In this document: positions 11,300-47,078 of the stretch, in pieces
Position numbering within the stretch: the stretch's first letter is position 1
Layout: the number at the start of each line of letters is the position of its first letter
Assembly: GCA_040876265.1 (NCBI GenBank)
Contig: JBBDPN010000002.1
Span: 170,510-234,509, forward strand
Origin: Candidatus Woykebacteria bacterium
GTDB lineage: Bacteria; Patescibacteriota; Microgenomatia; Woykebacterales; RBG-16-39-9b
Length of the DNA stretch: 64,000 nt
Reading direction: 5' to 3'
Position numbers and translations under genes: made by a program
The notes under the pieces: model-generated
Databases searched by the model: none
Seen by the model: the letters and a program-made list of their open reading frames with translations, nothing else
What the model was told of the DNA's origin: nothing

Positions 11300-11460
11300 A
11301 TTTTTTCAGTAACTTTTAGACCGTCAAACGGGTGCAGAGTCACAATTTCTAAATCAGTTTTTACAATTTTTTCTGTGACTCTTAATCCACGAAGTGGTTG
11401 CAAAGTAACCGAATTTAACTTTTAATTATTTTTTCGGTTACTTTATACTCCAACCTTTTC
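11300..11460. repeat. degenerate tandem repeat (~63 bp x 2.5) spanning the GT2 gene 3' end; contains one copy of the 21-nt CCACTTCGTGG motif and a 9-bp inverted repeat
   Basis: Units start at about 11300, 11365 and 11427 (tattttttcAgtAact / aattttttcTgtGact / tattttttcGgtTact). The last unit encodes the GT2 C-terminus. IR AGAGTCACA/TGTGACTCT at 11336-11344 and 11374-11382. Confidence 0.6.
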
Positions 11461-12908
11461 CCAAACAAGAGTCTGGTGTGGGCGTCCATGCCAGGTAAAG
11501 AGGAAAAGAAAAAGCCGGTGATTGGGAGTAGTATGTATTGAATAAGTGTCATCGGAAGCAAGCTCTTTTTGAAATACGCAGGTCGTGGAGGGCGCATAAG
11601 AAAATCAATTACGATAACAACCAAAAAGAATATCGCACATAGGGTAAGGATAAAACTAGCTATTCTGGGCAAATTAAAACCAAGAGCAGTATATTTAAAG
11701 GACTCATTGATCAGCGGAGGTATGGCTGCGCCTAGAGTGATTATCCACCAGTTCACCGGCCAAAGAATATGTTGCTCGGCTGCTCTTATAAATCTGACCA
11801 CAAAGGAACTGATCGGTACACTTTTTCTGAATTTGATAAAGCGGGAAAGAGCGTAAGCAATATCAGTAACCCCCCAGGCCCAACGTCTATTTTGAATATA
11901 TTGGGCTTTTAGGCTTTCCCAATAAGTCTGACCTTCAGCGGCATCGGCGTATAGTGGCAAAAATATAGATTCCAGCTCGACGTCACCTCTATTGGCGAAA
12001 AAAGCTTTAAAAAACAGATGCCAATCCTCTGGAATTACATCGACGTCCCAAAAGCCACTTTTTTCAAGCAGTCGCCAACTGGTAGAGTAGGTTGAATAGT
12101 TAAAATTGGACCCAGGGCGTAGAAGTTCAGCCACGCCGGTGATGGAGTAAATTGTGTGGACAACCCTGACGAATATCGGTACTCGCCAAATGTTGTTATA
12201 AAATAAAATAGCCGCTTGCCAAAAACGGCTGTATGGGTTTTCATTTGTCAAAAATTGGTAGGTAAGAAGGGCGAAATATTTTGGATGGATCGAAACGTCA
12301 GCGTCACAGCTGGTGACAGTGATGTAGTCTTTATCATAACCAGCTGCTTCAATAAAACCTTGGACTTGTTTAGCGGCGTGGGCTAAATTGGAAGATTTTC
12401 CGGCTACTTCATTTTTGGTGAGTTTATGGTGGGTGATCCAGAAATTTCCAAAGAAGTGCCCATACTTATCTTGAAGCTCCTTCGCCTTCTCCAAAACACC
12501 TTCTTCCCGCTCTTCTGTAGCTAAACAAACATCAATTTGCTTTGTGGTAAATTCGGTTTCGGAGAGAAATGTTAACGTCCGAGATAAAATTTCCTCCGGC
12601 TCTTTGTATGTTGCGACTATTACTATGTGCCTCATTTTTTGCCAAGGTAATCCTCCTTCCTTTAATTTTTTTAACCAATCGATACTGTTCGTTTTTTTGA
12701 TACGTCTGTAGCCTCGAACTGAGTTAACGGCCAACGTTACGGTGCGGTAAAAGAAGTAAATATCAAAAAAGATGATGAAATAAGCTACTGCAACCGGGAT
12801 AAAAAAACTAGCCCAGAAAGGTGAGCTTAATAAGAGTAGTGAAATTATAGGAGGAATAATTTCAAATAGTCTGTTCAACCGCTTTTCACGTCTTTCTTGT
12901 TTGCTCAT
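11415..12908 (-). CDS. processive family-2 glycosyltransferase (cellulose/chitin-synthase-like, membrane-embedded)
   Basis: N- and C-terminal TM segments. D/DxD motifs. QNRRWAWG (QxxRW) processivity motif. Confidence 0.7.
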   Translation of the reverse strand: MSKQERREKRLNRLFEIIPPIISLLLLSSPFWASFFIPVAVAYFIIFFDIYFFYRTVTLAVNSVRGYRRIKKTNSIDWLKKLKEGGLPWQKMRHIVIVATYKEPEEILSRTLTFLSETEFTTKQIDVCLATEEREEGVLEKAKELQDKYGHFFGNFWITHHKLTKNEVAGKSSNLAHAAKQVQGFIEAAGYDKDYITVTSCDADVSIHPKYFALLTYQFLTNENPYSRFWQAAILFYNNIWRVPIFVRVVHTIYSITGVAELLRPGSNFNYSTYSTSWRLLEKSGFWDVDVIPEDWHLFFKAFFANRGDVELESIFLPLYADAAEGQTYWESLKAQYIQNRRWAWGVTDIAYALSRFIKFRKSVPISSFVVRFIRAAEQHILWPVNWWIITLGAAIPPLINESFKYTALGFNLPRIASFILTLCAIFFLVVIVIDFLMRPPRPAYFKKSLLPMTLIQYILLPITGFFFSSLPGMDAHTRLLFGKRLEYKVTEKIIKS

Positions 12909-13684
12909 TTGTGGAAATTAAATAAGTTCCTAGCGTTTTGAGCGGTAATTTTGGCAGCTTTTTCTAGCGACCACCCTTTGAGGTCTGCAATAGTAACCGC
13001 CACCATTTTAACATAAATAGGTTCATTTCGCTTCCCTCGACGACCTTTCGGGGACAGAAACGGAGAATCGGTTTCAGTTAAGATTCTGTTATCAGGCAGT
13101 TTCTTAGCAACGTCTCGTATGTAATCGTTACCTTTGTAAGTAATGTTTCCAGAAAATGATATGTATAGACCCAGGTCAAGGAAATTTTTTGTTTGTTCCC
13201 AACTACCCATGTAACAATGCATCAAGCCAGTAGTTTTGCCTTTATATTTTTTAATCTGGTTGTATATCTCGTCATACGCATCTCGGCAATGAAAAAGGAT
13301 TGGTTTACCTAACTCACCCGCAAGATTAATTTGTTGCTCGAGAATTTCTACTTGCGCCTTTAAATTGGGCTTACGATAATTCTTGTAGACATGTTTATCG
13401 AGCCCAATTTCACCGACGGCAACCACCTTTCCCCTTTTGCCTAAGGATTCTAGAGTTTGGTAAGTTTCTTTGCTCCATTGACCGACATGATGAGGATGGA
13501 CGGCAACGGAGGCGAAAAAATTATCAAATTGTTCCGAGAGCTTTACGCTTTTTTCACTTGCATCCACACTAGTACCAACATTGATCAATGCTTCGAGTTC
13601 CTTCGAATTTCTTTTTGTAACCTCGTCGCGATCGCCATCATAAGCCTTAAACTGCAAATGGGCGTGGGTATCTATTAGGTTCAT
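12905..13684 (-). CDS. tatD: TatD family metal-dependent hydrolase
   Basis: MNLIDTHAHLQF start. Conserved His/Glu/Asp ladder of TatD. 259 aa. Confidence 0.85.
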   Translation of the reverse strand: MNLIDTHAHLQFKAYDGDRDEVTKRNSKELEALINVGTSVDASEKSVKLSEQFDNFFASVAVHPHHVGQWSKETYQTLESLGKRGKVVAVGEIGLDKHVYKNYRKPNLKAQVEILEQQINLAGELGKPILFHCRDAYDEIYNQIKKYKGKTTGLMHCYMGSWEQTKNFLDLGLYISFSGNITYKGNDYIRDVAKKLPDNRILTETDSPFLSPKGRRGKRNEPIYVKMVAVTIADLKGWSLEKAAKITAQNARNLFNFHK

Positions 13685-15150
13685 TTTCTAGGAAATAGTG
13701 CAGCAGATGAAGTGATATTCTTTTGTAAAAATTGCTTCTCTATTCTTTCTGCTGTTTCTGGCAGGAATGGTTTGATCAATTTTGAGATGCCTTGAATTTT
13801 AACAATTGTTTCCTGCAGAAAGGAATAAAGTTTATTTGGGTTAGACTTCAGTAGTGCCCACGGCTTCTCCTTATCAATTGCTTGGTCCAATTCTGATATC
13901 TCAACCCAAATTAAATCCAGCACATCTTTGAGATATAATTTTTCGATGTACTCAACAATTTTTCTTTCTCGATCGTTATTTGGTTTACCGTACGGGTCGC
14001 CCAAGTCTCTAAGGGAATAATTTTTACCGGACTTTTCGACCAGTTTCGCTACTCTAGCGATCAGATTTCCTAGACCATTGGCAAGATCGGCGTTATAGAC
14101 TTCTTTCAATCGGTCAAATGAGAAGTCGCCGTCATTACCAAATGGTATTTCTTTGAATAGGAAATAGCGAAGCGCGTCGGTGCCGTATTCATCAGCAATT
14201 TTTATCGGGTCAATTGCGTTGCCAAGTGACTTGCTGATTTTTTGGCCATCGATGGTGAAGAAACCGTGAGCAAAGACCTTTTTTGGCAGTGGCAGGTCTG
14301 CGGCCATAAGCATTGCTGGCCAGATGACAGCGTGAAAGCGAAGAATGTCTTTACCGATTATATGCACATCTGCAGGCCAAAATTTTTCTGGTGTTCCGGA
14401 GTAGTAACTCAAAAGCGCGTCAAACCAAACGTAAATCCTTTGTTTCTTATCAAATGGCACTTGTATACCCCACTTCGCGTTCTCCCTTGATATCGAAACG
14501 TTTTCCAAACCCCTCCTAACAAATGAAACTACCTCATTCCTTCTTTCAGGAGGTTCTATAAAGCTTTTATTTTCCTCGTAAAGGACTAGGAGTTTGTCTG
14601 TAAAATCTTTTAATTTGAAAAAATAATTTTTTTCTTCCAAAACCTCAGGTTTAGTTTTATGATCAGGGCAAAGTCCTTTTTCATCCAAGTCCTCATTTTT
14701 GATAAAGGCCTCGTGTCCTAAGCAGTAGAGACCTTTATAAGTTCCTTGTTCAATAAGACCAGCGTCGTAGATCTTTTGAAAAATTTCTTGGACAAATTTT
14801 TCATGTTTCTTTGTTGTTGTTCTAACAAAACCAAACTTTCCATCAGCAATGTTGAGTTTTCGCCAGGTTTTTTGCCACGTTTTTGCCATAACATCGGCAT
14901 ATTTTTCGACTGGCAAGTTCTTTTTCCCAGCGGCTTCAACCGTCTTTTGAGAATTCTCATCGCTGCCAGTTAATAGAAACGTTTCGACACCTTTTTGCTG
15001 GTGGTATCTAGCCAAAATATCAGCAGCGAAAGTCGCATAGGCATGACCTATGTGCGGCACGTCGTTTATGTAATAAATAGGTGTGGTTACAAAGAATTTT
15101 TTCGATTCGTTCATAGATTTGCGTATTTTATTATTCTTTGCCTCTATCAC
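13681..15150 (-). CDS. metG: methionyl-tRNA synthetase (core form without C-terminal domain)
   Basis: HIGH motif (PHIGHAYA). KMSKS motif (KISKSLGN). 489 aa. Confidence 0.9.
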   Translation of the reverse strand: MIEAKNNKIRKSMNESKKFFVTTPIYYINDVPHIGHAYATFAADILARYHQQKGVETFLLTGSDENSQKTVEAAGKKNLPVEKYADVMAKTWQKTWRKLNIADGKFGFVRTTTKKHEKFVQEIFQKIYDAGLIEQGTYKGLYCLGHEAFIKNEDLDEKGLCPDHKTKPEVLEEKNYFFKLKDFTDKLLVLYEENKSFIEPPERRNEVVSFVRRGLENVSISRENAKWGIQVPFDKKQRIYVWFDALLSYYSGTPEKFWPADVHIIGKDILRFHAVIWPAMLMAADLPLPKKVFAHGFFTIDGQKISKSLGNAIDPIKIADEYGTDALRYFLFKEIPFGNDGDFSFDRLKEVYNADLANGLGNLIARVAKLVEKSGKNYSLRDLGDPYGKPNNDRERKIVEYIEKLYLKDVLDLIWVEISELDQAIDKEKPWALLKSNPNKLYSFLQETIVKIQGISKLIKPFLPETAERIEKQFLQKNITSSAALFPRK

Positions 15151-15160
15151 GCAACTTTAT

Positions 15161-15200
15161 TAGCCCACGAACTCCGATTTGATCGGAGGAAGTGGTCGCC
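15161..15200 (-). promoter_or_regulatory. split copy of the 21-nt motif (GGCGACCACTTC-[17-nt hairpin CTCCGATCAAATCGGAG]-TTCGTGGGCTA) in the metG 5' leader, preceded by a GC-rich hairpin
   Basis: Reverse complement of 15161-15200 matches motif copies at 36383-36403 and 47044-47064 on both sides of an inserted perfect 7-bp hairpin. Confidence 0.45.
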
Positions 15201-15287
15201 CGCCTGCCGGACGGTCAGGCAGCGCGCGTGAATACTGAAAAATCCTGTATTTTGAAGTATGAAGCGTGCTATCTCTACCAAGCAAGA

Positions 15288-15680
15288 TCAACGGCTTGAT
15301 AAGTATATCTCAACCAGAATTGCGATACCAACGACAAGCCCAACGTTTAATATGTTCGAGAGATTTAATACGTTCAAAGCTACTACGCTAGTGGTTACTA
15401 GTGAAAATAAAAAACCGCGCCTTAACGATCTAAAAAAAAGTCTTCGCGGCTGTGATTGGGCGCCGGTTGCTCTGCTTTTAGGAGCGAGAAAATTTTCAAA
15501 AAAATAAAGTACCAAAGAGACACTGATTCCTAACGCCAGAAAGCCAGAAAGGAAAACATAAAGGATATTAGAAATTGCCAATTGGCCTTCGATATCCGGT
15601 GGAACAAACCAGATAAGATAAGCAAAAGCAGCCCAAGAGAAAGCAGCGATTAGAAAGAAAACTGCGACAAAAAATTTCAT
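15288..15680 (-). CDS. hypothetical membrane protein
   Basis: 130-aa ORF with 4 predicted TM helices. The opposite-strand ORF is less plausible. Confidence 0.35.
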   Translation of the reverse strand: MKFFVAVFFLIAAFSWAAFAYLIWFVPPDIEGQLAISNILYVFLSGFLALGISVSLVLYFFENFLAPKSRATGAQSQPRRLFFRSLRRGFLFSLVTTSVVALNVLNLSNILNVGLVVGIAILVEIYLSSR

Positions 15681-15749
15681 GTATTTTCATTTTGCCCCAT
15701 CTAGCCTCAGTTTACAACCAAAGCCTTTCTTGTTAATATTGGAAAACTA

Positions 15750-16793: not shown

Positions 16794-16806
16794 GAGGAGA
16801 GCACTA

Positions 16807-17049: not shown

Positions 17050-17076
17050 CGGGAAGAACCTAGAAGGGAGATCAAT

Positions 17077-18592: not shown

Positions 18593-18606
18593 GGAGGGAA
18601 ACTGTC

Positions 18607-19083: not shown

Positions 19084-22038
19084 ATGAGTAAAGTACTAGA
19101 GGGTTTGAACAAACAGCAAAAAGATGCAGTAATGACGACGGAAGGACCATTACTGATAATCGCTGGAGCTGGGACTGGAAAAACCACCGCCATTACCCGC
19201 CGCATCGCTTACCTTATTGAGCAAAAATTGGCTAAACCATCAGAAATTCTCGCACTCACCTTTACCGAAAAAGCAGCCGGAGAGATGGAAGAAAGGGTCG
19301 ATATTCTGGTTCCCTATGGTTACATTGACACTTGGATCTCTACATTTCACTCTTTTGGCAACCGCGTCTTGCAAGAAAACGCTATAGATCTAGGTCTATC
19401 CCCGGACTTTAAAGTCCTCACCCGCCCATCCCAAATTCTTTTTTTCCAACAAAACCTTTTTGCTTTTGATCCCTCTTATTATCGGCCACTTAGCAATCCA
19501 ACGAAGTTTATCGAAGCGATTTTGCAATTCATCAGTCGCTGTAAGGATGAAGACATTTCACCGGCAGACTACAAAAAATATGTCAGAAAATTGAAAAAAA
19601 CTACTCCAAGGAAACTTGGTTTAACGAAGAAGGAATGGGAGACCGAGGTCAAACGACAGGAAGAACTTGCTAATGTCTACGAAAAGTACGAGAAACTAAA
19701 AACAAATGCTGGACTTGTGGATTTTGGCGATCAGATTACTTTGACACTTAGACTTTTTCGCGAAAAACCAGGGGTTCTCAGAAAATACCAAAAACAATTT
19801 AAATACGTCCTTGTGGACGAATTCCAGGACACCAACTGGGCTCAGGACGAACTCGTCAAATTACTGGTAGAACCAAAGGATAATATCTGTGTGGTGGCAG
19901 ATGACGACCAGAGTATTTACCGTTTTCGCGGCGCGGCCATCAGCAACGTGCTGGAGTTTAAAAAGACTTACCCAAAAGCAAAAATAGTTACTCTGCTGGA
20001 AAACTTTCGCTCCGGGCAACCGATTCTCGACTCCGCCTACCGTCTGATTCGTCATAACGATCCAGATAGGCTTGAAGTACGTGAAAAAATTGATAAAAAA
20101 TTAAAATCAGTAAAAAAGAATCCGCCGGCTGGTGGATCTGGCCCGCCAAAAGAAATTTATGCTGAGACTCTTAGCGTTGAGGCTGATGCTATCGCAAAGA
20201 AAATTAAAGATTTAACAAAAAGGGAGAAGCTGGCCTACAAAGATATCGCAATTTTAGTGCGGGCAAATGCCCACGCCGATCCCTTTTTGCGAGCTCTCAA
20301 CATGAAAGGAATTCCCCACAAATTTGTTGGCAGTAGCGGCCTATACGCCCAGGAAGAAGTGAAGCTTTTAATCTCTTTCTTAACTGCAATTTCCAATTTC
20401 GACGATTCGCCAAACCTTTACAACCTTGCTTCGAGTGAAATTTATAAATTGCCTCTGAAAGACGCGATCGCGGTGATGGATTGGGCAAAAAGAAAAAGCA
20501 AGACCCTCCGTTATGTCCTCACCAAAATTGACGATCTAGAAGAGATCGAGCTAGGTGCGGAGGCGAAAGAGATAATTAAAAAGATAAACAGCGATTTAGA
20601 TTCTCTCGTTGATTTGTCCCGTAAAGAACCAGTCGGCCGGGCGCTCTATGAATTTTTGAAGAGAACTGGGTTCTTATCGCGGCTTGAACAAAAAGGCAAC
20701 GTGGAGGCGGAGATAAAGATCCAAAATATTGCCAGGTTTTTCGATAAAATCCGCGAATTTTCCGAGATTGCCCAAAATGAATCGGTGCGCGCCTTTACCG
20801 ATTGGCTCGCGGTTATGAGAGGTGCGGGAGACGACCCCGCAACTAGCGAATTTGATCCGGACACGAATGCAGTAAATATCATGACTGTTCACTCTGCCAA
20901 GGGTTTGGAATTCCCAGTGGTTTTTCTGGTGAATTTGGTTTCAGACAGGTTTCCCTCAAGAGAGAGGAGAGACGTTATTGCTATTCCGGCCGAACTAATA
21001 AAAGAAACACTTCCGGCTGGGGACTTTCACATGCAGGAGGAAAGAAGACTTTTTTACGTGGGTATGACGCGGGCGATGGATCATTTGTTTCTGACCTGGT
21101 CGCGTGATATTGGCGGAAAAAGGACCAAGAAAGTTTCTCCTTTTGTTCTTGAGGCACTGGATAAAACAGTCAGCAGTGCTCTGGTGGAAAAAACGAGCGC
21201 GCTAGAAAAAATCCACCGTCACGCTGGCCATACAGCCTCGGCTAGCAACCTACCTCAAGCAGGCGTAAAAGTAATTAAACTTACTCAAGGAGCAGTTGAT
21301 GATTACCAAACGTGCGCTTATAAGTATCGCTACGTTCATGTTTTGAGACTGCCTATTCTTCGTCACCACGCTGTGGTTTACGGAGCCGCGCTCCACATCG
21401 CTGTGGCCGCTTTTTACCGGGCCAAAATGGCTGGTAAAAAAATGCCACTCGCAGCACTCCTAGCAATTTTTGAAAAAGCCTGGACTGGCGAAGGCTTTCT
21501 TTCACAAGAGCATGAGGAGAGAAGATTAGCACAAGGGAAAAAGATCTTGGCTGATTTTTGGAGACGTGAAAAAGATAAAAAACAAAAACCCACCTTTATT
21601 GAAAAGGATTTTCGTTTCAGCGTCGGCGGAACTATTGTTACCGGTAGGTTCGATCGGGTGGATGTCGGCAGAAAAAAGGTGAAAATAATTGATTTCAAAA
21701 GTACTGAGGGCAGAAGCAAGGAAGAGATAGAAAAAAACGCCAAAGAAAGTATCCAACTTCGCGTCTATGCGTTGGCTTATTACAAAAATAGTAATCCGCC
21801 GGTAGTTCCAGATTTTGTCGGCATTTACGATCTTGATAGCGGAGTAGTGGGTGGTTACAAACCTACAAAGAAACATCTTGAAAAAACAGAAGAAGAGATC
21901 AAAGAAACTGCAAAAGGAATTAAAAATAATCTACAAGAGGACAATTTCCCAGCCAACCCAAAATACTTTGGTAGAGTCCCGGCGTGTTATTACTGTGCAT
22001 ACAATAGTATTTGCCCTTTCTCTTTAGTTAGAAGATAA
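19084..22038 (+). CDS. UvrD-family superfamily-1 helicase fused to a C-terminal RecB/Cas4-like PD-(D/E)XK nuclease with Fe-S cysteines
   Basis: Walker A GAGTGKTT. UvrD motifs (VDEFQDTN, TVHSAKGLEFP). C-terminal GRFDRVD ... IIDFKSTEG ... QLRVYALA nuclease motifs. Cysteines C...CYYCAYNSIC. Confidence 0.8.
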   Translation: MSKVLEGLNKQQKDAVMTTEGPLLIIAGAGTGKTTAITRRIAYLIEQKLAKPSEILALTFTEKAAGEMEERVDILVPYGYIDTWISTFHSFGNRVLQENAIDLGLSPDFKVLTRPSQILFFQQNLFAFDPSYYRPLSNPTKFIEAILQFISRCKDEDISPADYKKYVRKLKKTTPRKLGLTKKEWETEVKRQEELANVYEKYEKLKTNAGLVDFGDQITLTLRLFREKPGVLRKYQKQFKYVLVDEFQDTNWAQDELVKLLVEPKDNICVVADDDQSIYRFRGAAISNVLEFKKTYPKAKIVTLLENFRSGQPILDSAYRLIRHNDPDRLEVREKIDKKLKSVKKNPPAGGSGPPKEIYAETLSVEADAIAKKIKDLTKREKLAYKDIAILVRANAHADPFLRALNMKGIPHKFVGSSGLYAQEEVKLLISFLTAISNFDDSPNLYNLASSEIYKLPLKDAIAVMDWAKRKSKTLRYVLTKIDDLEEIELGAEAKEIIKKINSDLDSLVDLSRKEPVGRALYEFLKRTGFLSRLEQKGNVEAEIKIQNIARFFDKIREFSEIAQNESVRAFTDWLAVMRGAGDDPATSEFDPDTNAVNIMTVHSAKGLEFPVVFLVNLVSDRFPSRERRDVIAIPAELIKETLPAGDFHMQEERRLFYVGMTRAMDHLFLTWSRDIGGKRTKKVSPFVLEALDKTVSSALVEKTSALEKIHRHAGHTASASNLPQAGVKVIKLTQGAVDDYQTCAYKYRYVHVLRLPILRHHAVVYGAALHIAVAAFYRAKMAGKKMPLAALLAIFEKAWTGEGFLSQEHEERRLAQGKKILADFWRREKDKKQKPTFIEKDFRFSVGGTIVTGRFDRVDVGRKKVKIIDFKSTEGRSKEEIEKNAKESIQLRVYALAYYKNSNPPVVPDFVGIYDLDSGVVGGYKPTKKHLEKTEEEIKETAKGIKNNLQEDNFPANPKYFGRVPACYYCAYNSICPFSLVRR

Positions 22039-34555: not shown

Positions 34556-36322
34556 ATGGGAAACATCCGTAATTTTTCAATCATCGCCCATATTGACCAT
34601 GGCAAATCCACGCTCGCGGACAGGCTCTTAGAAATTACTGGAACTATCAAAAAAGAAAACTTGTCACCCCAGCATCTCGATCAGCTTGATCTTGAACGGG
34701 AGAGAGGCATTACAATCAAACTCGCACCAGTAACGATGATTTACAAAGGTTTCACCCTTAATCTCATTGATACACCCGGTCACGTCGATTTTTCTTACGA
34801 AGTGTCACGCTCACTTGCGGCTGTTGAGGGAGCTGTTCTTTTGGTGGATGCCACAAAGGGAATTGAGGCCCAAACCCTCGGTAATTTCTTGCTCGCGAAA
34901 AACCAAAATCTAAAAATAATTCCAGTTATAAATAAAATTGATCTTCCAAACGCTCAAGTTGAAGAGGTTGAAAAGCAATTGGTTGAAACCGCCGGATTTC
35001 AAAAAAGTCAGATTTACAAAGCTAGTGCTAAAACTGGCGAAGGCGTAGAAAAATTACTGGGAAAAATTATTGAAATTGTCCCTCATCCTTCCGGAAAAGA
35101 GGAAAAACCATTTCGGGCGCTGATCTTCGATTCATTCTACGACCAATTTAAAGGGGTCATAGCTTATGTACGCGTTTTTGATGGGAAGATAAAAAAAGGC
35201 GAAAAAGTGGAATTTTTTGGGGTTGGCAAAAGCGTGACAGCGGAAAGCCTTGGCCAATTCGCACCAAGTTTAGTCGAGAGAGGAACACTGCGCGCGGGAG
35301 AAATTGGCTGGATAGCAACCGGACTAAAAAATGTCGAATACGTAAGAGTTGGCGATACTATTACAAGGCTTGATAAAAAAGCCGAACCCATCCTGGGTTA
35401 TAAAGAGACAAAACCTTTTGTCTTTGCTGGGGTTTTTCCAGTAGATAGGGATGAGTTCCCAGCCCTCAAAGATGCTCTGGAAAAACTGAAATTAAACGAC
35501 GCCGCTCTTCACTACGAGGCAGAAAACTCACCCGTTCTTGGATTTGGTGTCCGGGCCGGGTTTCTTGGACTCCTTCATATGGAGATCGTGCAGGAAAGGC
35601 TGGAGCGAGAATTTGATTTGGATCTGATCCTCACCTCACCCACGGTTCCTTATAGATTAGTAAAAACAAACGGTGAAAAGCTGGAGATCTCAAATCCTAG
35701 TTCTTTCCCCTCGTCCCCCGTGATAAAGGAAATAAAGGAACCTTGGGTAAAAGGGAGCATTGTAAGTTTGCAAAATTATTACGGGCCGATCTCCCAACTG
35801 CTTTATGATCATAGGGCGGCGATCACGGACGCTGAGTATTTTGGAGATAAGGTAAGGGTTTTAGTTCAGCTGCCTCTGGCCGAAATAGTGTCTTCTTTTT
35901 ACGATAAGCTCAAAACTGTATCGTCCGGATTTGCAAGTTTCGACTATGAAATCGGTGAGTTTAAGTCCATAGATGCGGTTAAGTTGGATATATTGGTTGC
36001 TGGGGAGAGTGTAGATGCCCTGTCCCAAATTGTAGTGAAGGACAAAGCTTACAAGACAGGGAAAGCTTTGGTTGAACGATTAAAGGATGTTATCCCTCGC
36101 CAAAATTTCGAGGTTTCCCTCCAAGCTGCGATCAGTGGGAAAATAATCGCCGCTGAAAAAATCCCCACTTTCCGAAAAGATGTCACTGCCAAACTTTACG
36201 GTGGCGATAGGACTAGAAAAGATAAACTTCTTAAAAAGCAGAAAAAGGGTAAGAGTCGTATGAAGATGGTCGGTAAGGTATTAATACCGCAGGAGGCTTT
36301 TCTCTCTGTACTTAAGATTTAG
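34556..36322 (+). CDS. lepA: elongation factor 4 (LepA)
   Basis: G-domain IRNFSIIAHIDHGKSTL, DTPGH, NKID. LepA C-terminal domain. 588 aa. Confidence 0.9.
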   Translation: MGNIRNFSIIAHIDHGKSTLADRLLEITGTIKKENLSPQHLDQLDLERERGITIKLAPVTMIYKGFTLNLIDTPGHVDFSYEVSRSLAAVEGAVLLVDATKGIEAQTLGNFLLAKNQNLKIIPVINKIDLPNAQVEEVEKQLVETAGFQKSQIYKASAKTGEGVEKLLGKIIEIVPHPSGKEEKPFRALIFDSFYDQFKGVIAYVRVFDGKIKKGEKVEFFGVGKSVTAESLGQFAPSLVERGTLRAGEIGWIATGLKNVEYVRVGDTITRLDKKAEPILGYKETKPFVFAGVFPVDRDEFPALKDALEKLKLNDAALHYEAENSPVLGFGVRAGFLGLLHMEIVQERLEREFDLDLILTSPTVPYRLVKTNGEKLEISNPSSFPSSPVIKEIKEPWVKGSIVSLQNYYGPISQLLYDHRAAITDAEYFGDKVRVLVQLPLAEIVSSFYDKLKTVSSGFASFDYEIGEFKSIDAVKLDILVAGESVDALSQIVVKDKAYKTGKALVERLKDVIPRQNFEVSLQAAISGKIIAAEKIPTFRKDVTAKLYGGDRTRKDKLLKKQKKGKSRMKMVGKVLIPQEAFLSVLKI

Positions 36323-36464
36323 TAGAAAGTCGTATAGCAACCCCCGTACCTCAAAACTAAAGTTTTTCAGTACGCTTGGTTGCTGCGACCACTTCGTGGA
36401 CTAGAAAATGGTCGGCCGCGTTCAAATACCCCAAGAGGCTTTCCTATCGGTTCTAAAAGTTTAA
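36266..36464 (+). repeat. diverged ~57-nt direct duplication of the lepA 3' end with an 85-nt spacer carrying the 21-nt motif; the downstream copy is an intact 18-codon mini-ORF (36408-36464)
   Basis: ATGGTCGGTAAGGTATTAATACCGCAGGAGGCTTTTCTCTCTGTACTTAAGATTTAG versus ATGGTCGGCCGCGTTCAAATACCCCAAGAGGCTTTCCTATCGGTTCTAAAAGTTTAA. Peptides MVGKVLIPQEAFLSVLKI versus MVGRVQIPQEAFLSVLKV. Confidence 0.65.
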
Positions 36465-39382: not shown

Positions 39383-41326
39383 ATTTCTAAGATTATTGGT
39401 ATTGACCTAGGAACAACAAACTCAGTGGTGGCGGTCGTTGAAGGAGGCCAGCCAAAAGTTATTCACAGTGCTGAGGGAGAAAACATCATCCCATCAGTTG
39501 TCGATCCAGCGAAGAGGGTAGCCGGTCGAGTGGCCAAAAGACAGCAAGTCGTGAACCCAAAACAGACCATTTTTTCTGTGAAAAGGCTTATGGGTCGACA
39601 TTTTAAAGACACCCAAGTGCAGGAGGACATGAAATGGCTCCCCTACGAAATAAAAGAAGGTAAGGACAGTACGGCGACTGTTGAAGTGGAGGGTAAACAA
39701 TACACCCCACAGGAAATTTCGGCCCAAATTCTGCAAAAAATAAAGAGCGATGCAGAAAGTTATCTAGGGGAAAAAGTAACAGAGGCGGTCATTACTGTTC
39801 CTGCTTATTTTGATGATGCCCAGCGTCAAGCTACAAAACAAGCCGGAGAAGTGGCTGGACTTGAGGTCAAAAGGATCATTAACGAGCCAACAGCCGCAGC
39901 TCTCGCCTACGGTTTAGATAAAGAGAAAGCTCATACTATTGCTGTCTATGATCTTGGTGGTGGGACTTTTGATATTACTATTCTGGAGCTGGGAGAGGGA
40001 GTCTTCGAAGTAAAAGCAACTGCTGGAGACACTCACCTGGGTGGAGACGATTTTGACCAAAAAGTTATTGATTACTTAACCACTGAATTTAAAAAAGAAC
40101 AAGGTATTGATCTCGCGAGCGACAAACAAGCCTTGCAACGATTGAGAGATGCAGCAGAGAAAGCAAAAATCGAACTTTCTTCCACCACCGAAACTGAAAT
40201 CAACATTCCTTATATTACGGCTGACGCTAGCGGTCCAAAGCACCTGGTTCATAAATTAACACGGGCCAAGCTGGAAGCCTTAACCGGGGAGTTAATAGAA
40301 AAAAGTTTCAAAGCAGTAGAACAGGTGCTGAAAGACGCGAAGATTGAAGCCGGTAAAGTAGATGAAGTTGTACTAGTTGGGGGCCAAACTCGAATGCCGG
40401 CTGTCGCCGAAAAGGTAAAAAGTTTCTTTGGTAAAGACCCACACAAAGGAATAAATCCCGACGAAGTCGTCGCTATCGGGGCCGCTATCCAGGGTGCAGT
40501 ACTTTCTGGGGAAATGAAAGATGTTGTGCTTTTGGACGTAACACCGCTGTCTCTTGGAGTGGAAACTTTGGGTAGCGTTTCGACAGTTCTAATTCCTAGA
40601 AACACCACTGTTCCCACCCAAAAAAGCGAAGTTTTTTCTACTGCAGCGGATAATCAAACATCGGTTGAAATTCACGTGTTGCAGGGTGAACGGCCGATGG
40701 CAGCGGACAACAAATCCCTAGGACGTTTTATCCTCGACGGTGTCCCACCGGCGCCAAGAGGCATCCCGCAGGTAGAGGTAACGTTTGACATCGATGCCAA
40801 TGGAATTCTCAACGTGACGGCGAAAGAAAAAACAACTGGTAAAGAGCAATCCATAAAAATTACGGGCTCTACTGGGCTTTCCAAAGAAGAAGTCGAGAAA
40901 ATGCAAAAGGAGGCTGAAGCCCACGCCGCCGAAGATACCAAGAAAAAAGAGTTAATCGAGGCTCGAAATATTGCCGACAGCCTGGTTTACACTGCTGAGA
41001 AGTCCCTGAAAGACGCTGGTGACAAGGTACCAGGGGATGTAAAAGAAGAAGTGGAAGATAAAGCCAAAGTAGCTAAGGAAAAAATAGCCGCTGACGATTT
41101 GGAAGAAATACGTAAAGCAACCGACGAGCTAAGCGCTTCCTTGCAAAAAATAGGTCACGCTATGTCTTCTCGTTCCCCAGGCTCTGATACCACCGGTGCT
41201 GGAGTGCAAGAAGAAATAAAAGAAGGTGAAGAAAAAAAAGATAAGGGCAAAGAGAATCCACCAGCTAGCGGAGAAACCGTAGAAGGCGAAGTAGTCGACG
41301 AGGACAAAAAGGAAGAGAAAAAGTAA
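39383..41326 (+). CDS. dnaK: molecular chaperone DnaK (Hsp70), inferred ATT initiation codon
   Basis: Full Hsp70 motifs ([18 protein letters not shown], and others). The only upstream in-frame position that gives the canonical (M)[14 protein letters not shown]-terminus is ATT at 39383. It lies 8 nt after AGGAGG (39369-39374). The first ATG/GTG/TTG (39425) would truncate the conserved motif. Confidence 0.9.
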
Positions 41327-41378
41327 GTGTAAAAAGGGACGACTCGAGATGAGCCGCCCTCTTGGATAGGAGCCTCGA

Positions 41379-41729
41379 TTAGTTGGCGGAAACTAATTTC
41401 CGGACTTCTTTCAGCACTTCATGCTTTGGTACCCACCGATCCGCTCCCGCCTCCACGATTTGTTGGCCAAAGTAGGAGCTCCTAGAGGAGGCTAGGATGA
41501 TCCCGTCAAATTGGGCTCGAAACCCACTCGTTAGTTGCTGAGTGTTCGGTTTCGTGGTGTGGAGGCAGGCATCCATCACGATGATGTCGATGGTTCCGAG
41601 GTATTCTCGAAATAGAACTCTGGCTTCCGCCTCGGTCGTAGCGACAATTAAGTCGCAATAGCTACGAAGCCCTATTTCGACAACCTCGATGAAATCATCA
41701 TCGTCTTCGACTAGCAACACTTTTTGCAT
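41379..41729 (-). CDS. stand-alone response-regulator receiver (CheY-like) domain protein
   Basis: LLVEDDDDF, DIIVMD and conserved Lys. 116 aa with no output domain. Confidence 0.6.
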   Translation of the reverse strand: MQKVLLVEDDDDFIEVVEIGLRSYCDLIVATTEAEARVLFREYLGTIDIIVMDACLHTTKPNTQQLTSGFRAQFDGIILASSRSSYFGQQIVEAGADRWVPKHEVLKEVRKLVSAN

Positions 41730-42028
41730 CGGATCTCCCCCCCAAGCTTAGATGACAGAACTGTTATAGGATTATAACACCCCTTACCACCAACGTGAGT
41801 GTACTAATAATTGAAAATTGTTTGTTGATAATTATTCAAATTTACTATAGCTTATTGACAGAAGCGGTAATTTGGTGTACAAAGCTCTTGCCAGATGTCC
41901 TACAAAACCCTGTTTTTTATAGTTCTTCTTCTTGTTGGTGTAGTCCTAGCCTTCCTCTTTCTAGCTGGATTTGTCCGCCAGTCTTAAATTAGCAAACACT
42001 TGAAATATCTGCTAAAATCCTCTTCATA

Positions 42029-43123
42029 ATGTCAACAAAAAAAGATTATTATGACGTCCTCGGCGTCTCCAAAACAGCCTCAGATTCTGAAATAAAGAGC
42101 GCTTATCGTAAAAAAGCACGGGCTCATCACCCGGATGTAGATAAATCTGCGGACGCCGAGAAAAAATTTAAAGAAATAAACGAGTCTTATCAAGTGCTTT
42201 CTGACCCTCAGAAACGAGAAGCCTACGACCGTTTTGGTCACGATGCCTTTCGCACTGGTGGAGCCGGAGCCCCAGGGGGCTTCAGCTATCAGTACTCCCC
42301 AGGTGTAGATTTCAACTTTGACTTTGGTGGGTTTGCCGATCCCTTTGAAATATTCGAGCAGTTTTTTGGTGCTCGTTCTCCGTTTGGTGGTTCAGCGCGG
42401 CGTGGACCGAGAACAGGCGAGGACCTTCATTACGAGATTATCATCCCCTTTGAGCAAGCGGCTTTTGGTGTAGAAAAGAAAGTTGAGCTGGAGCGGCACG
42501 AAAACTGCTCGGTGTGCGGTGGTTCTGGAGCAGAGCTGGGAAGCAAAAAGACTAAGTGCCCTACATGCAATGGAAGAGGTCGTATCCAGCAAGCAACCCA
42601 ATCTATTTTTGGTAACATAGTTACATCACGTACGTGTCCTACTTGCGGTGGTGAGGGTGAAGCGATAGAGAAAAAATGCCACCAGTGTAAAGGTTCTGGC
42701 CGTACAAAGGCAATCGCCGAGAAGACAATTAAGATCCCCGCTGGAGTAGATGATGGCGATACTATTCGGTTTCAAGGCTTGGGCGAGGCCGGGGAACGCG
42801 GCGGCGGCTACGGTGATCTTTATCTTTCGATCCGTGTCTTGCCTCACAAAGAGTTCAAACGCCGCGGGTTTGACGTTTACTATGAACAGCCGATTTCTTT
42901 TTCCCAGGCCGCTCTGGGGGATACGATCGAAGTGACAACTCTTGACGGAGAAATGAAATTAAAAATTCCCGAAGGTACCCAGACCGGAACGGAATTCCGC
43001 TTAAAAGATAAAGGTATAAAGCACGATAGTTCTCGTGGTGACCAATACGTGCGTGTCAAAGTACAAACCCCGACACGGCTTTCTTCAAAACAGAAAGAAG
43101 CGTTGAAAAATCTAAGGGATTAA
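42029..43123 (+). CDS. dnaJ: molecular chaperone DnaJ
   Basis: J-domain with HPD. G/F region. Four CxxCxGxG zinc-finger repeats. C-terminal domains. Confidence 0.9.
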   Translation: MSTKKDYYDVLGVSKTASDSEIKSAYRKKARAHHPDVDKSADAEKKFKEINESYQVLSDPQKREAYDRFGHDAFRTGGAGAPGGFSYQYSPGVDFNFDFGGFADPFEIFEQFFGARSPFGGSARRGPRTGEDLHYEIIIPFEQAAFGVEKKVELERHENCSVCGGSGAELGSKKTKCPTCNGRGRIQQATQSIFGNIVTSRTCPTCGGEGEAIEKKCHQCKGSGRTKAIAEKTIKIPAGVDDGDTIRFQGLGEAGERGGGYGDLYLSIRVLPHKEFKRRGFDVYYEQPISFSQAALGDTIEVTTLDGEMKLKIPEGTQTGTEFRLKDKGIKHDSSRGDQYVRVKVQTPTRLSSKQKEALKNLRD

Positions 43124-43143
43124 ATAAGGCGAGGAATGAAAGA

Positions 43144-43196
43144 GGCGCAGAGTCGCTCGCGAGCGTCTTCGGAGAGACTCTGCGCCCCTGGTTTTC
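43144..43196 (+). terminator. intrinsic terminator after dnaJ
   Basis: 11-bp stem GGCGCAGAGTC/GACTCTGCGCC (43144-43154 and 43176-43186) enclosing the palindrome GCTCGCGAGC. Followed by GGTTTT. Confidence 0.5.
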
Positions 43197-44188
43197 CCGC
43201 GGACCTCATCGATAGAAACGGCAGTCAGCCATGGAGGTTCTACCGAGGGAGGCGTTGATCAAGCAGAGTCTTTGGCCTTACGTCGACCTGCAATGTCCAA
43301 AGGATCTGCCAGAGAGTTTTTGCCTCGCGAGCTAGCGCCAAGCTCTAGCGAAACAGATGTTAACGAAAACTCTTTGCCCACGATCCCACAACACATCCCT
43401 CTCCTACTGCGGCATTTGCCGATGAGGACGTGCAGGCAAATAGTAGTGGGGTATTTTACATGTTTGGGAAGTAAATGTCAAAATATATTGATAAGACTTT
43501 CGAAATTGGTAATAGAAAAGTTGAAGGCGCATCAAAGAGGATATTACACCTCACTGATGCGCCTACTCGATTGCTGACGCTTTCCAGGCCGCCCCAACCC
43601 GAAAAGCGTCATATCCACCATTGGCGGCGGACTAGAAGGAGGTCGCCCGATACTTTCCAGTTAAGGAGCACCGGTTTGATTTCCTAAGGGGTATAAGGAA
43701 AGATTCCAAGATACCCCGGTTGATTTCAGACGCTCCTGAGTCTGAGTGATTGCTCGCCAGGGGGTGCGGCGGTGAGACAGAGGAGCGTCGAACCACGACA
43801 GTTGCGGCTTCTGTCGAGGCCAAATTTAAGCCAATCGGTCAAAGAGTTTGAGCTGTTGCGACCGATCGGGTCTGCTCTATTGTCAGGCAGCAGACCATTC
43901 CTACTAGCAGGGTATTAGGCGTTGTCGAAGATTGCTAAATTGCCTAATCCGTGCTCGTACCGCTGGTATATAAAAGATAAGTGCTGAAGCTGAGTGTAAA
44001 CTCCAGTTGGCCCGGGCGGGAGGGGGATGCCCATAAACTGGAAGCCGTACCCAGCATATTACAAACCTCTGCTCGAGTAAATCGAACAGAAGTCAGCTAC
44101 CCCTTCCTCGTTTCTTCACCTTAACTTAACCACTTTTTTGCTTGATTGTCAATATATGTTTGTCGGTCAAGATTTTTCGCCTAGTTAC

Positions 44189-44224
44189 TTGATGCCCCAA
44201 CGCACTAAGTGCTTGGGGCATCAA
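44189..44224. promoter_or_regulatory. 36-bp near-perfect palindrome TTGATGCCCCAA-CGCACTAAGTGC-TTGGGGCATCAA upstream of nusA
   Basis: 12-bp perfect arms with a spacer that is itself palindromic. Could form a 16-bp hairpin or act as an operator. Confidence 0.4.
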
Positions 44225-44355
44225 CCCTTTCGTAGTCTTTAGCGAAGGAGGGTTGACCAAAGCGCGCTAATTATTTATTATTGGTACACTAAAATTTATT
44301 AACTTTTTAAAAGTGGGATAAACTCCCACTTTCTTAGGTTGAGGAGGTCAAAAAC

Positions 44356-45465
44356 GTGGCGCTTAGGACAGAATTCGCAGCGGCTCTAAACCAAGCAGCA
44401 GCTGAACGAGGAGTAGAACCCGAAGAGGTTGTTGACATAATTAAAGAGGCAATAAAAACTGCCTACAAAAAGGATTATGGTGGAGAAGTGGAAGGCTTTG
44501 AGGTTGAGATAGATCAGGAAAGCGGCGCGGCAAAAATTTTTGAAAATAAAAAAGACGTCACTCCCGCTGGCTTCGGTCGTATCGCTGCTCAGACAGCTAA
44601 ACAAGTGCTGCTCCAACGTATCCGTGAGGCTGAAAAGGGAGCGATTTTTTCAGAATTTGAAAAAAGAGTTGGTACCATCGTCAACGGAATGATCCAGAGA
44701 CTAGAAGGCCCCAATATAGTGGTGGACCTGGGAAAGACGGAAAGCACTATGCCCGTGGTAGAAAAAATGCCTGGCGAAGATTACCGGCTAAACCAACGAT
44801 TGAAATTTTATATTGTTGGGATCCGCGAGGGAGCTAGAGGTCAAGAAATTGTTGTTTCCAGAGCTCATAAAGGTTTGGTCGAAGGTTTATTCAAACTTGA
44901 AGTACCAGAAATTGGTTCGGGGATAGTTGAAATAAAAGGTATCGCTCGCGAAGCTGGTAGCAGAAGTAAAGTCGCAGTCTCATCTCGTCAGGCTGGGGTT
45001 GACCCGGTGGGTAGCTGTGTTGGCCAAAAGGGAGTAAGAGTCCAGGCGGTGATAGCAGAACTTGGCCACGAAAAAATAGACGTTATTGCTTACAGCGACG
45101 ACCCGGCCAAGTTTGTTGCCGCGGCTCTTTCACCAGCTACAGTTGACAAGGTGAGTGTTGATGAAAAAACGAAAACAGCTTCGGTCGAAGTACCCGACGA
45201 TCAACTCTCTTTAGCAATTGGTAAGGACGGACAAAATGTTCGTCTGGCTGCAAAATTGACGGGTTGGAGGATTGATATAAAGGGAGCTGAGAAACTGCAA
45301 GAAGTAGAAAAGGTTCCAAGTGAGAGTGAAAAGCCAAAGAAAGCAAGAAAGACGGCATCCAAGACAAAAAAAGCGACAAAACCCAAGAAGAGCAAAACCA
45401 GTACGAGTAAGGGTAAGAAAAAAGTAGCAGAAAAACAACCAGCAGAAGCTACCGATGAAAAATAA
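44356..45465 (+). CDS. nusA: transcription termination/antitermination factor NusA with lysine-rich C-terminal tail
   Basis: NusA N-terminal, S1 and two KH domains. GTG start 8 nt after GAGGAGG. C-terminal KPKKARKTASKTKK tail. Confidence 0.9.
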   Translation: MALRTEFAAALNQAAAERGVEPEEVVDIIKEAIKTAYKKDYGGEVEGFEVEIDQESGAAKIFENKKDVTPAGFGRIAAQTAKQVLLQRIREAEKGAIFSEFEKRVGTIVNGMIQRLEGPNIVVDLGKTESTMPVVEKMPGEDYRLNQRLKFYIVGIREGARGQEIVVSRAHKGLVEGLFKLEVPEIGSGIVEIKGIAREAGSRSKVAVSSRQAGVDPVGSCVGQKGVRVQAVIAELGHEKIDVIAYSDDPAKFVAAALSPATVDKVSVDEKTKTASVEVPDDQLSLAIGKDGQNVRLAAKLTGWRIDIKGAEKLQEVEKVPSESEKPKKARKTASKTKKATKPKKSKTSTSKGKKKVAEKQPAEATDEK

Positions 45466-45516
45466 ACTAGCATTTTTAGTTTTTAATAGATTCGGTGGTA
45501 GGGAAGTAAATATTTT

Positions 45517-47013
45517 ATGGCAAAGAATAAGAGCAGAACAATTGAAAAAGGACAACAAAGTACGGCTCAGCCGTCAGGCAGACCGCCGGTCGTCGCGATT
45601 CTCGGCCACGTTGATCATGGAAAAACCACTCTTCTTGACTATATCCGCAGAAGCCACGTAGCAGCCAAAGAAGCTGGGGGAATAACCCAGCACATAGGGG
45701 CTTACCAAGTCACCCACAAAGGCCGAAAAATAACCTTTATTGATACTCCAGGCCACGAAGCTTTTTCCGCTATGAGGGCCCGCGGCGGTTCCGTCTCAGA
45801 CGTTGCTGTTTTAGTAGTAGCCGCCGATGATGGTGTCATGCCTCAAACAAAAGAAAGTATCGCCCACCTAAAAGCAGCCCAGACCCCGTTTATCGTGGCT
45901 GTTAATAAGATGGATTTACCCGGCACAAATATAGATCGGATCAAAAAGCAACTTTCGGAGGAAGGAGTTTTGGTAGAAGGGTTCGGAGGTGATGTTGTTG
46001 TAGTTCCGATTTCCGCGAAGAGGGGTGAAGGTGTTGATAATCTTCTCGAAATGGTTAATTTAGTCGCGGATATGCAAGGGCTCAAAGAAGAGACAGGAAA
46101 AGATTTTTCCGGAGTTGTTATCGAATCCAAACTAGATAAATTTAAAGGTCCAGTCGCTACGGTTCTGGTGAAAGAAGGAGTATTACGAATCGGCGACCCG
46201 GTGCATACAAAAAGTACTACTGGAAAGGTAAAGGCGTTGGTAGGAGATGAAGGTGTACCAGTGAAAGAAGCCAGGCCATCCACCCCAGTTGAAGTTTTGG
46301 GCTTTGCGGCCGTACCAAAAGTTGGTGAGGAGGTTAGCTCAAAAGAAGCGGAAACAGAAAAAGTGGAAAGCAAGAAACCGATTGAGACAGGTGAAAAATT
46401 TGTACGGCCGAAAGAAAACGAGATCAGGCTAATTATAAAAGCGGATGCTCAAGGCTCACTTGAGGCTATTACAAGTTCTTTAGAGAAACTTAAAAAGGAA
46501 AATCAGCAAGTAAAAATATATTATTCTGATACTGGAAATATTACTGATAGTGATATTCTCCTTGCCTCAGCGACCAAGTCCTTAGTCATCGGCTTTAACG
46601 CAAATATCTCAAACACCGCTAGCAAACTCGCCAGCGAAGAAGGAGTTCTGGTTAGAACTTACAATATTATCTATGAGCTAATCGACGAGTTGGAAGAGGG
46701 TTTGGAGGCGATTAGCCGGCCAGAAGTAAAAGAGGAGATCCTAGGCAATGCTGAAATACTGAAGATTTTTACGGCCGAGGAGGATAAAGTTGCCGGTTGC
46801 AGGACAATATCGGGTCGGATTAATAAGGGCGATCTACTGGCAATAAAAAGAGATGGAAAGGAAATTGGACGAAGTAAAATAGTTTCGATGAAGCACCGAG
46901 ACAGTAACATAAACGAAGCTAACGAAGGGGAAGAATTTGGACTGATTTTTGAAAAAAAGGTGCCCTTTGCCAAGAGTGATATAATTGTTGCTATGGGATC
47001 CTCCGTAAATTAG
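45517..47013 (+). CDS. infB: translation initiation factor IF-2 (compact, 498 aa)
   Basis: [22 protein letters not shown]-motifs and IF-2 C-terminal domains. Confidence 0.9.
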
Positions 47014-47078
47014 AAACCTTGGTTTCTAAGGTACTCTCGGATCCTGCGACCACTTCGTGGGCTACGGTCAATTTTATG

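Follow-up and report, generated by a model that had tools for sequence, protein, structure and literature searches.

A two-hairpin repeat in Woykebacteria-like bacteria that is probably selfish DNA rather than a gene-control signal

Does a short sequence that recurs beside several genes of a bacterium control those genes, or is it a repeat that has come to rest there? The question is raised by a 64,000-nt stretch of DNA from a Candidatus Woykebacteria bacterium (positions 170,510 to 234,509 of contig JBBDPN010000002.1, assembly GCA_040876265.1; the window), in which a motif of about 20 nt occurs four times. A reading of the letters alone (the sequence-only reading) had offered both answers, a cis-regulatory leader element and a miniature mobile or duplication-prone element. 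We consider it probable, if not assured, that the motif belongs to a new non-autonomous hairpin repeat, defined by its structure and specific to Woykebacteria-like members of the Candidate Phyla Radiation (CPR), which is similar to the repetitive extragenic palindromes (REPs) and the Rickettsia palindromic elements (RPEs), and is selfish, probably mobile DNA rather than a signal for gene control.

When the window is searched with the 15-mer GCGACCACTTCGTGG, allowing up to two mismatches, three copies are found, at 11387-11401 (minus strand; copy c1), 36385-36399 (plus; c3) and 47046-47060 (plus; c4), where 0.04 matches are expected by chance, and an 18-mer with up to three mismatches recovers the same three (0.06 expected). 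The remaining copy, c2, at 15161-15196 (minus), is split and reads ACCACTTC[CTCCGATCAAATCGGAG]TTCGTGGGCTA. A gapped pattern, ACCAC-N3-30-GTGGRYTA, matches all four (0.11 expected; 0 of 100 shuffles reach four), so that four copies, one of them split by a hairpin, stand at the places first described. Copies c3 and c4 form the best direct repeat of the whole window, and all four stand at or just past the 3' end of the upstream gene. A further site with two mismatches in dnaK (40459-40473, minus; GCGACGACTTCGTCG) is a small palindrome of the coding sequence that scores 6.9 bits with the covariance model described below, and we do not count it as a family member.

The 21-nt motif does recur, but it makes up just the 3' portion of a larger unit, A(G/A)-P2 hairpin-CTGCG-HP2 hairpin-(G)CTA, preceded by a T and followed by an A-rich flank, in which HP2, the 3' hairpin, is the motif itself; a hairpin of variable sequence, P2, ends immediately before it in all four window copies. 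The aligned consensus, between the same flanks, is A(G/A)NNCGC-loop-GCGNNCT-GCGACCAC-TTC-GTGGRCTA. P2 has a 7-bp base, the sequence of which varies among copies while its pairing is kept, and it is extensible: its loop is 3-4 nt in the short form, a unit of 36-37 nt, whereas long forms of 68-82 nt carry a long imperfect P2 hairpin with the interior TCCGTAA...GTACTCTC (form A) or TCGTATTC...GAATACTCC (form B). Copies c3 and c4 are of form A, as is c2, which has two further small hairpins and spans 110 nt. A covariance model built from 20 short forms (R1) scores c4, c1, c3 and c2 at 38.2, 35.1, 31.8 and 12.7 bits, respectively, with nothing else convincing in the window, and finds 99 copies in the 0.55 Mb made up of the window and selected related loci.

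Both hairpins are retained by paired changes. Compensatory changes occur in 10 of the 12 model pairs (73 cells) among the R1 copies, which 0 of 500 shuffles reach and slid controls fall far below, and pairing is kept in 89.5% of the cells of this alignment, which is fitted to the model (the seed alignment was examined separately). The proposal that the CCAC-TTC-GTGG core folds into a hairpin is borne out by HP2 variants in divergent copies that keep their pairing, namely CCAT/ATGG, CCC-GTA-GGG, CTGGA...TCCAG, CCTCGC...GCGAGG and AATAC/GTATT; the CTGCG and (G)CTA flanks stay constant in such copies, and HP2 is wholly lost in a few. The base before the unit (-1) is T in 76% of copies, with W-rich positions -2 and -3, and the 3' flank is A-rich from +1 to +4, with T in 1% of copies at +1 and in 1-6% over +1 to +3. 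About 99% of copies retain the 3' CTA (TAG on the opposite strand), and the base that precedes TAG on that strand is T in 65%, G in 21% and C in 14%; the inner junction on that strand is GCAG, which fits GYAG. On the same complementary strand both loops read C-GAA-G, and the short P2 holds the exact heptamer GCGAAGC, a DNA mini-hairpin known for its exceptional stability. Many elements are directly followed by a tandem or partial second copy, and nested copies occur too. Several known structures were compared with the consensus and set aside: the conserved bases do not fit the hammerhead, twister, pistol, hatchet and HDV-like (hepatitis delta virus) ribozymes, group II intron domain V/VI, the archaeal bulge-helix-bulge, boxA/nut or dif, nor does the unit fit the template and variable repeats of diversity-generating retroelements, the differences between the two lepA ends described below not being specific to adenine.

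An exact scan with GCRACCACTTCGTGGRYTA of one genome per species (185,579 species, 596 Gb) returned 92 loci, here given L-numbers. By a tally of the match tables, about 71 matches lie in some 13 AT-rich metagenome-assembled genomes (MAGs), up to 15 of them in a single MAG of less than 1 Mb, and the rest, 21 or so, are GC-rich singletons that lie within coding sequence, where a rough estimate of chance matches in 596 Gb is a few tens. The sequence-only reading had suggested such a search of related genomes and a covariance model. The element-rich MAGs are labelled Candidatus Woykebacteria, 'bacterium', Patescibacteria, 'Nanoarchaeia archaeon' or 'Gammaproteobacteria'. Whatever the label, proteins at loci that overlap window genes are 64-79% identical to those of the window (in a 'Nanoarchaeia' MAG, for instance, the helicase shares 77% identity, and DnaK in another shares 79%), and therefore the family appears specific to Woykebacteria-like CPR bacteria, the window organism included. 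The 19-mer itself is identical across these species. Viral contigs held no copy of the 19-mer, our literature searches returned no description of a repeat family of this kind in CPR bacteria, and a protein-database search with the encoded peptide, extended to a longer query, returned only three tiny proteins.

Two side observations concern the hosts. The MAGs labelled 'Candidatus Nanoarchaeia archaeon' or 'uncultured Gammaproteobacteria bacterium' (loci L014, L022, L040-L044, L080 and others, in DASVHF01 and DATBWR01; L004, L006 and L034, in OZ246414; and L002, L017, L020, L045, L069, L072 and L087) carry bacterial genes (helicase, DnaK) 64-79% identical to those of the window, together with the same repeat; their taxonomy labels look wrong and the genomes look like Woykebacteria-like CPR. 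The repeat can serve as a sequence marker that groups MAGs of doubtful label with Woykebacteria-like genomes. Five Dehalococcoidia genomes (L013, L023, L032, L038 and L088) also contain a single exact 19-mer, within one orthologous GC-rich coding sequence (...GDHFVGY...), which is unrelated to the repeat family.

The joint between element and host DNA can be read from copies that interrupt tRNA fragments, in T-loops (L007, L010, L024, L044), T-stems (L071, L087) and D-loops (L040, L069); the interrupted sequences are partial tRNAs adjoining intact tRNA genes. Removal of the stretch from A to CTA restores AAGGG-TTCGAAT-CCCTT, the acceptor strand and CCA in L007, and in L087 it leaves a 3' end colinear with the neighbouring tRNA. 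Therefore, insertion was precise, after a T, and without target duplication. The unit has no terminal inverted repeats, as its ends, A(G/A)NNCGC.. and ..GTGGRCTA, are not complementary beyond TAG/CTA. Apart from this, a unit of about 75 nt that starts (A)GGATTCTCAC(A/G)(G/T)AGGTTCGA(A/T)TC recurs between element and tRNA 3' ends (L071, 3438-3510; L087, 4380-4460 and 6472-6545) and includes sequence of the T-arm in both directions, as a snap-back duplication would. In L087, two identical repeats of tRNA end plus element enclose a segment of about 2 kb with a gene for a 553-aa hypothetical protein.

Presence and absence at orthologous sites is also seen within protein genes. A 69-nt copy in the UvrD/PcrA-like helicase gene of two Woykebacteria species (L066, L073) is read through in frame as NRSLRNSKLSVSQYSRALRPLRGL; it occupies a variable loop and is absent from the orthologues in the window (19084-22038), L080 and L002. 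Short copies of 36 nt stand in frame in the genes of topoisomerase I (TopA; L065), leucyl-tRNA synthetase (LeuRS; L029) and an IscU/SufU-like scaffold protein (L034), the last being absent from the orthologues in L060, L082 and L091. All five in-gene copies have one orientation and one frame (..LRPLRGL) and a length divisible by three (36 or 69 nt), which argues that they are translated and not removed. Between the two helicase orthologues, 2 of the 69 nt of the copy differ, and the flanking codons differ at many positions. The same helicase has, at about residue 370 (L066:6347-8000), a second lineage-specific insertion at another variable site, EYSLRTTAKTEDKKAIVGGRLAV, and a shorter one in L073, which may be a different inserted element.

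The sequence-only reading had also seen duplicated 3' ends of the upstream gene at two window copies; these are real (60 nt at lepA, 30 nt at a gene similar to GT2 glycosyltransferases), and they recur in the family. Around at least 15 copies the host sequence is directly duplicated, in the pattern X-(filler)-element-(filler)-X', and one duplicate abuts an element end exactly; most copies have no detectable flanking duplication. X may be a gene 3' end (the two window genes, L047, L027), a gene 5' end with ribosome-binding site and ATG (L003, L076) or a tRNA end (L071, L085, L087, L040), and some pairs are identical (22/22 in L085, 14/14 in L043). In six diverged pairs, the differences at codon positions 1, 2 and 3 number 13:12:47 (P = 3e-8 against a uniform distribution; P = 8e-4 against a rough in-situ-decay expectation of 0.46), and thus both duplicates evolved as coding sequence. 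A simple long target-site duplication followed by decay is rejected on this test. The duplicates look like the resident gene end plus one from a diverged relative.

A metagenome scan with LepA returned nearly exclusively distant LepA proteins (50-56% identity), and one useful relative, L094 (66% identical; Ga0315289_10000016, 4290-4560). There, the live lepA end and its stop are followed by 7 nt, the element and, directly after it, an intact duplicate end (copy B), and a frameshifted third end (copy C) lies about 70 nt past copy B, after a separate hairpin (GTTGACGTTT..AAACGTCAAC). In L094 the element belongs to another P2 subfamily and has a hairpin in the loop of its HP2. In L002, the GT2-like gene has an orthologue that likewise shows the arrangement X-element-X'. 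The lepA architectures in the window and L094, and those of the GT2-like gene in the window and L002, indicate that the events are recurrent, strike the same gene ends and stack units of gene end plus element. Two other accounts of these duplications were rejected: an ectopic crossover at lepA between an in-gene and a post-gene copy, since the element end is a TAG stop in the frame of copy B in both lineages, which makes an in-lepA parent unlikely; and an assembly artefact, which is unlikely because the duplications are seen again in independently assembled genomes and the copies have diverged far beyond the level of strain variants.

Taken together, we hypothesize that this hairpin repeat would spread as folded single-stranded DNA through an enzyme acting in trans. 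By analogy, our best guess for this enzyme is an HUH/Y1 'peel-and-paste' transposase of the type of IS200/IS605 and the RAYTs (REP-associated tyrosine transposases), a suggestion that we offer only tentatively because no enzyme was found. Insertions would survive mainly in spacers, gene ends, protein loops and dead tRNA fragments, and resident copies would act as points of breakage or recombination, which would explain why units of gene end plus element are stacked at the GT2-like gene and at lepA. The duplicated gene ends may be a secondary effect of breakage or illegitimate joining at a hairpin and subsequent selection for the intact gene. Several observations speak against a selfish mobile repeat. 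The window genes, all housekeeping, include no transposase, RAYT or integrase, the only recurrent open reading frames (ORFs) near copies in 8-kb loci belong to syntenic housekeeping clusters, again with no transposase or integrase among them, and tblastn with IS608 TnpA and E. coli RAYT sequences gave 0 matches in about 0.7 Mb, a weak test on partial genomes. The tag is imperfect by the standard of REPs, TAG being near-universal but the preceding G present in only 21%. The stability of the hairpins is not unusual, on either strand, as RNA or DNA (z of -0.15 to -1.5), and compensatory changes in palindromes can come from template switching, with no need for selection on structure. The near-perfect conservation of HP2 over deep species splits could instead reflect a selected host function, and simple transposition gives no account of the mainly synonymous divergence of the flanking duplicates.

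Orientation bears most directly on the alternative of a leader RNA, that is, a hairpin in the 5' untranslated region that controls the downstream gene by attenuation, processing or translation. All four window copies are sense to the flanking genes, two of them 12-46 nt before a start codon, and many sense copies across the family stand 7-35 nt before one; however, the spacers are so short that any insert of 36-80 nt ends there. The sequence-only reading held that each copy lies 10-100 nt upstream of a same-strand gene, which is true for metG and the DHH-like gene but not for the other two copies: the small ORFs that it named after lepA and before the glycosyltransferase gene have no call by the gene caller of the collection, and the ORF after copy 1 starts 169 nt away. 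It further held that copies are always co-oriented with the gene, which describes the window but not the family, since co-directional spacers, by gene calls that are crude but uniform, hold 30 sense and 23 antisense copies (n = 53; 19 versus 15 in an earlier tally), and 14 and 7 copies occupy divergent and convergent spacers, the spacer types being represented roughly in proportion to their length. At the family ratio, four sense copies out of four have a probability of about 0.1, and the shared orientation in the window is a coincidence, the four copies being passengers at gene 3' ends. Orientation in the family being random, the element is no leader signal; random orientation and copies in coding sequence are, moreover, the very outcomes that the sequence-only reading had named as speaking against a leader. 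The genes beside the copies are unrelated in function, copies lie inside ORFs and tRNA fragments, and no Rfam family matches the element at gathering or permissive thresholds. Therefore, we regard a leader RNA as very improbable, whereas the other suggestion, a miniature mobile or duplication-prone element, agrees with a dispersed, multi-copy, lineage-restricted repeat that is present or absent at orthologous sites and repeatedly accompanied by local duplications. Hardly any weight, and slightly less again, falls on a signal for the uptake of DNA in natural transformation. CPR bacteria are presumed to rely on this process, and the sequence is short, exactly conserved and lineage-specific, also occurs in reading frames, and marks junctions with foreign-looking gene ends. 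However, the window has only about one copy per 16 kb, against roughly one per kb for known uptake sequences; what is conserved is not a fixed 10-12-mer but a pair of hairpins whose stems covary; and copies are strongly depleted in coding sequence (10 of the 99 model copies lie in called ORFs).

The two remaining alternatives, which we hold equally unlikely, carry somewhat more weight. The element might be domesticated by the host and selected at each site, for protection or processing of mRNA 3' ends, as a weak or bidirectional terminator, or as a site for a nucleoid or repair protein. The identity of HP2 across species with 64-79% protein identity, the helicase copies that are far more conserved than their flanks, and the position of the window copies at or just past gene 3' ends would fit such a role, and roles of this kind have been proposed for some REPs (PMC3733652). 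By contrast, an intrinsic terminator scan scores none of the four window copies as a hairpin with T-run in the sense orientation; the 3' flank is A-rich and the stability unremarkable; convergent spacers show no bias (7 copies against about 13 expected from spacer length), it is hard to see a use for copies in tRNA fragments and protein loops, and tandem, degenerate and nested copies resemble decay. Alternatively, the element might be a recombination joint, the active end or attachment site of a system that swaps in gene and tRNA ends from diverged relatives, whether by an integrase acting in trans on mini-cassettes, by Campbell-type integration of small circles, or by hairpin-limited, homology-facilitated illegitimate recombination during DNA uptake. 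With the same low probability, the element would then be the working end of an undescribed CPR recombination process in which hairpin termini are joined to the chromosome while homology anchors the other side, and conserved gene and tRNA ends may be repeatedly replaced from diverged relatives with the old end pushed downstream, as at lepA in two lineages and in the three stacked ends of L094. In its favour are the X-element-X' duplications, with the one that abuts an element end exactly, the codon-position skew, and the recurrence of the lepA architecture in L094 with a different P2 subfamily and a third copy, and of that of the GT2-like gene in L002; tRNA ends are, in addition, classic targets of integrases. 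On the other side, most copies lack a flanking duplication and clean insertions without one exist, too many different targets share one conserved element for site-specific integrases, no integrase lies near the copies, and the duplications could be secondary, arising by palindrome breakage and selection for an intact gene copy; clusters of REPs reiterated with their flanking DNA are already known (PMC3733652).

Returning to the reading of a selfish hairpin repeat, the closest comparison is with the superfamily of GTAG-tagged REPs (Di Nocera et al., 2013), with which the element shares the most features. These are small hairpins of 20-40 nt, thought to be mobilised by RAYT tyrosine (Y1/HUH) transposases, whose TAG tags supply stop codons, which occur inside UvrD/Rep helicase and tRNA-synthetase genes, form stem subfamilies with complementary changes and are found in clusters reiterated with flanking DNA (PMC3733652). 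Similarly, the short form of our element, at 36-37 nt, is within the size of REP stem-loops, although it is made of two; it has many dispersed, mostly intergenic copies (up to 15 exact-motif copies per MAG), a terminal TAG that supplies stops, variable loops that are in some cases self-complementary, units arranged head to tail, stems that fall into subfamilies with complementary changes, reiterated clusters that include flanking DNA, and in-frame copies in UvrD-like helicase and tRNA-synthetase genes. Its other strand, a (T/G)TAG-hairpin followed by a GCAG-hairpin, resembles a head-to-tail REP dimer. The element differs in that REPs are recognized by an unpaired GTAG (or GYAG/GTRG) end tag in more than 90% of members (PMC3733652), whereas the base before TAG is here mostly T and seldom G; it is one fixed asymmetric unit of two hairpins, unlike the usual inverted dimers of REPs, is not enriched in convergent spacers and came with no RAYT in the sampled DNA, its flanking duplicates are diverged in a synonymous pattern, and its CPR host is not among the eight phyla listed for REPs (PMC3733652).

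In behaviour, the element also resembles the RPEs (Ogata et al., 2000), without being one of them. RPEs are described as in-frame insertions in protein genes (PMC10969869). The likeness consists of hairpin repeats in a reduced genome that stand in frame in unrelated housekeeping genes, in one frame and with a conserved peptide, and also in RNA genes and spacers; the differences are that RPEs are longer (about 100-150 bp, against 36-110 nt here), confined to Rickettsia rather than found in a CPR host, unrelated in sequence, and intragenic in nearly half of the copies of the first family, against about 5-10% here. Miniature inverted-repeat transposable elements (Correia, ERIC, RUP and others) are likewise short, non-autonomous, multi-copy hairpin elements of AT-rich intergenic DNA with size variants and decayed copies, but the present element has neither terminal inverted repeats nor a target-site duplication, and its two ends are unlike. 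The palindrome-associated elements derived from IS200/IS605 have asymmetric ends, subterminal hairpins on a single strand, duplication-free insertion 3' of a short conserved target, tandem arrays of new and old copies at the same target and, like the complementary strand here, GAA hairpin loops; however, no TnpA or TnpB was found in the sampled DNA, and the target here, a T within W-rich sequence, has too little length for a diagnosis. The element shares with integron attC sites a variable-length terminal hairpin, recognition by structure and a position at gene 3' ends, but the consensus has no R''/R' core sites (RYYYAAC / GTTRRRY), copies form no arrays and lie in either orientation, and no integrase is present in the window. 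CPR genomes are tiny, streamlined and usually described as poor in mobile DNA. If the element is what we suppose, selfish hairpins similar to REPs and RPEs invade even these genomes, including the coding sequences of essential genes (helicase, topoisomerase I, LeuRS and the Fe-S scaffold), and the junctions at which gene ends of diverged relatives appear to be spliced in provide a handle on recombination and gene exchange in uncultured organisms. Why the element goes along with the repeated replacement or duplication of gene and tRNA ends is unexplained, and this property is potentially important.

The four window copies illustrate the range of forms and settings. Copy c3 (36336-36403, plus) starts 13 nt past the lepA stop and is a long form of 68 nt, AGCAACC-CCCGTAC..GTACGCTT-GGTTGCT-GCGACCACTTCGTGGACTA. 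It separates the live 3' end of lepA (copy A, 36262-36322, plus; KMVGKVLIPQEAFLSVLKI and stop) from the displaced one (copy B, 36404-36464, plus; KMVGRVQIPQEAFLSVLKV and stop), which follows directly after its final CTA; the two ends differ at 17 positions, 12 of them third codon positions. Copy c4 (46995-47064, plus), a long form of 70 nt, GGGATCC-TCCGTAA..GGTACTCTC-GGATCC-TGCGACCACTTCGTGGGCTA, contains the last six codons and the TAG stop (47011-47013) of infB, and the ATG of the DHH-like gene is 12 nt downstream. Copy c1 (11383-11444, minus) consists of HP2 (GCAACCACTTCGTGGATTA, 11383-11401) and the 3' and 5' arms of P2 (TTCGGTTACTTT, 11402-11413; AAAGTAACCGAA, 11433-11444). Its P2 5' arm lies within the final 10 codons of the GT2-like gene (11415-12908), the stop codon of which is in the P2 loop, and the end of the orthologous gene in L002 is arranged likewise. 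A displaced duplicate of these last 10 codons, X', at 11287-11316 (minus), encodes KVTEKIVRN and a stop, compared with KVTEKIIKS and a stop at the live end (11415-11444). After X', at 11256-11283 (minus), GAGTATTTGCTAACGCTCACGAGGGCTA can be aligned to c1 as a degenerate second copy of the element, tentatively, as it falls under the R1 threshold; accordingly, the c1 region may be two tandem units of gene end plus element. Directly past this degenerate copy and upstream of the Glycos_transf_4 gene is a near-consensus sigma-70-type promoter, TTGAGA-17-TATAAT (11254-11226, minus).

Copy c2 (15161-15270, minus) is flanked by metG and by a 130-aa ORF, the stop of which is at 15288. Its P2 is AGCACGC...GCGCGCT, with the conserved interior TTCATAC..GTATTCAC, and its extra hairpins are GCCTGACCGTCCGGCAGGC, at the junction of P2 and HP2, and the insert in the TTC loop of HP2, a perfect hairpin, CTCCGAT-CAA-ATCGGAG. 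The junction hairpin has counterparts in L011 and L057. GC-rich mini-hairpins like this insert (also GTCCCGCTCAGCGGGAC, CCCCGATAATCGGAG and CCCCGATAGAATCGGGG) stand in hairpin loops of the element at 15173-15189 (minus) in the window, at about 4385-4401 in L094 and at the P2 tips of L005 and L048, and such loops seem especially prone to insertion or to extension of the palindrome. The repeat also causes breaks in at least one short-read assembly: the Logan contigs of run SRR27977662, the run in which the contigs of the window organism are found, break inside c2, _129518 starting at about 15189 and _3004 ending at about 15193.

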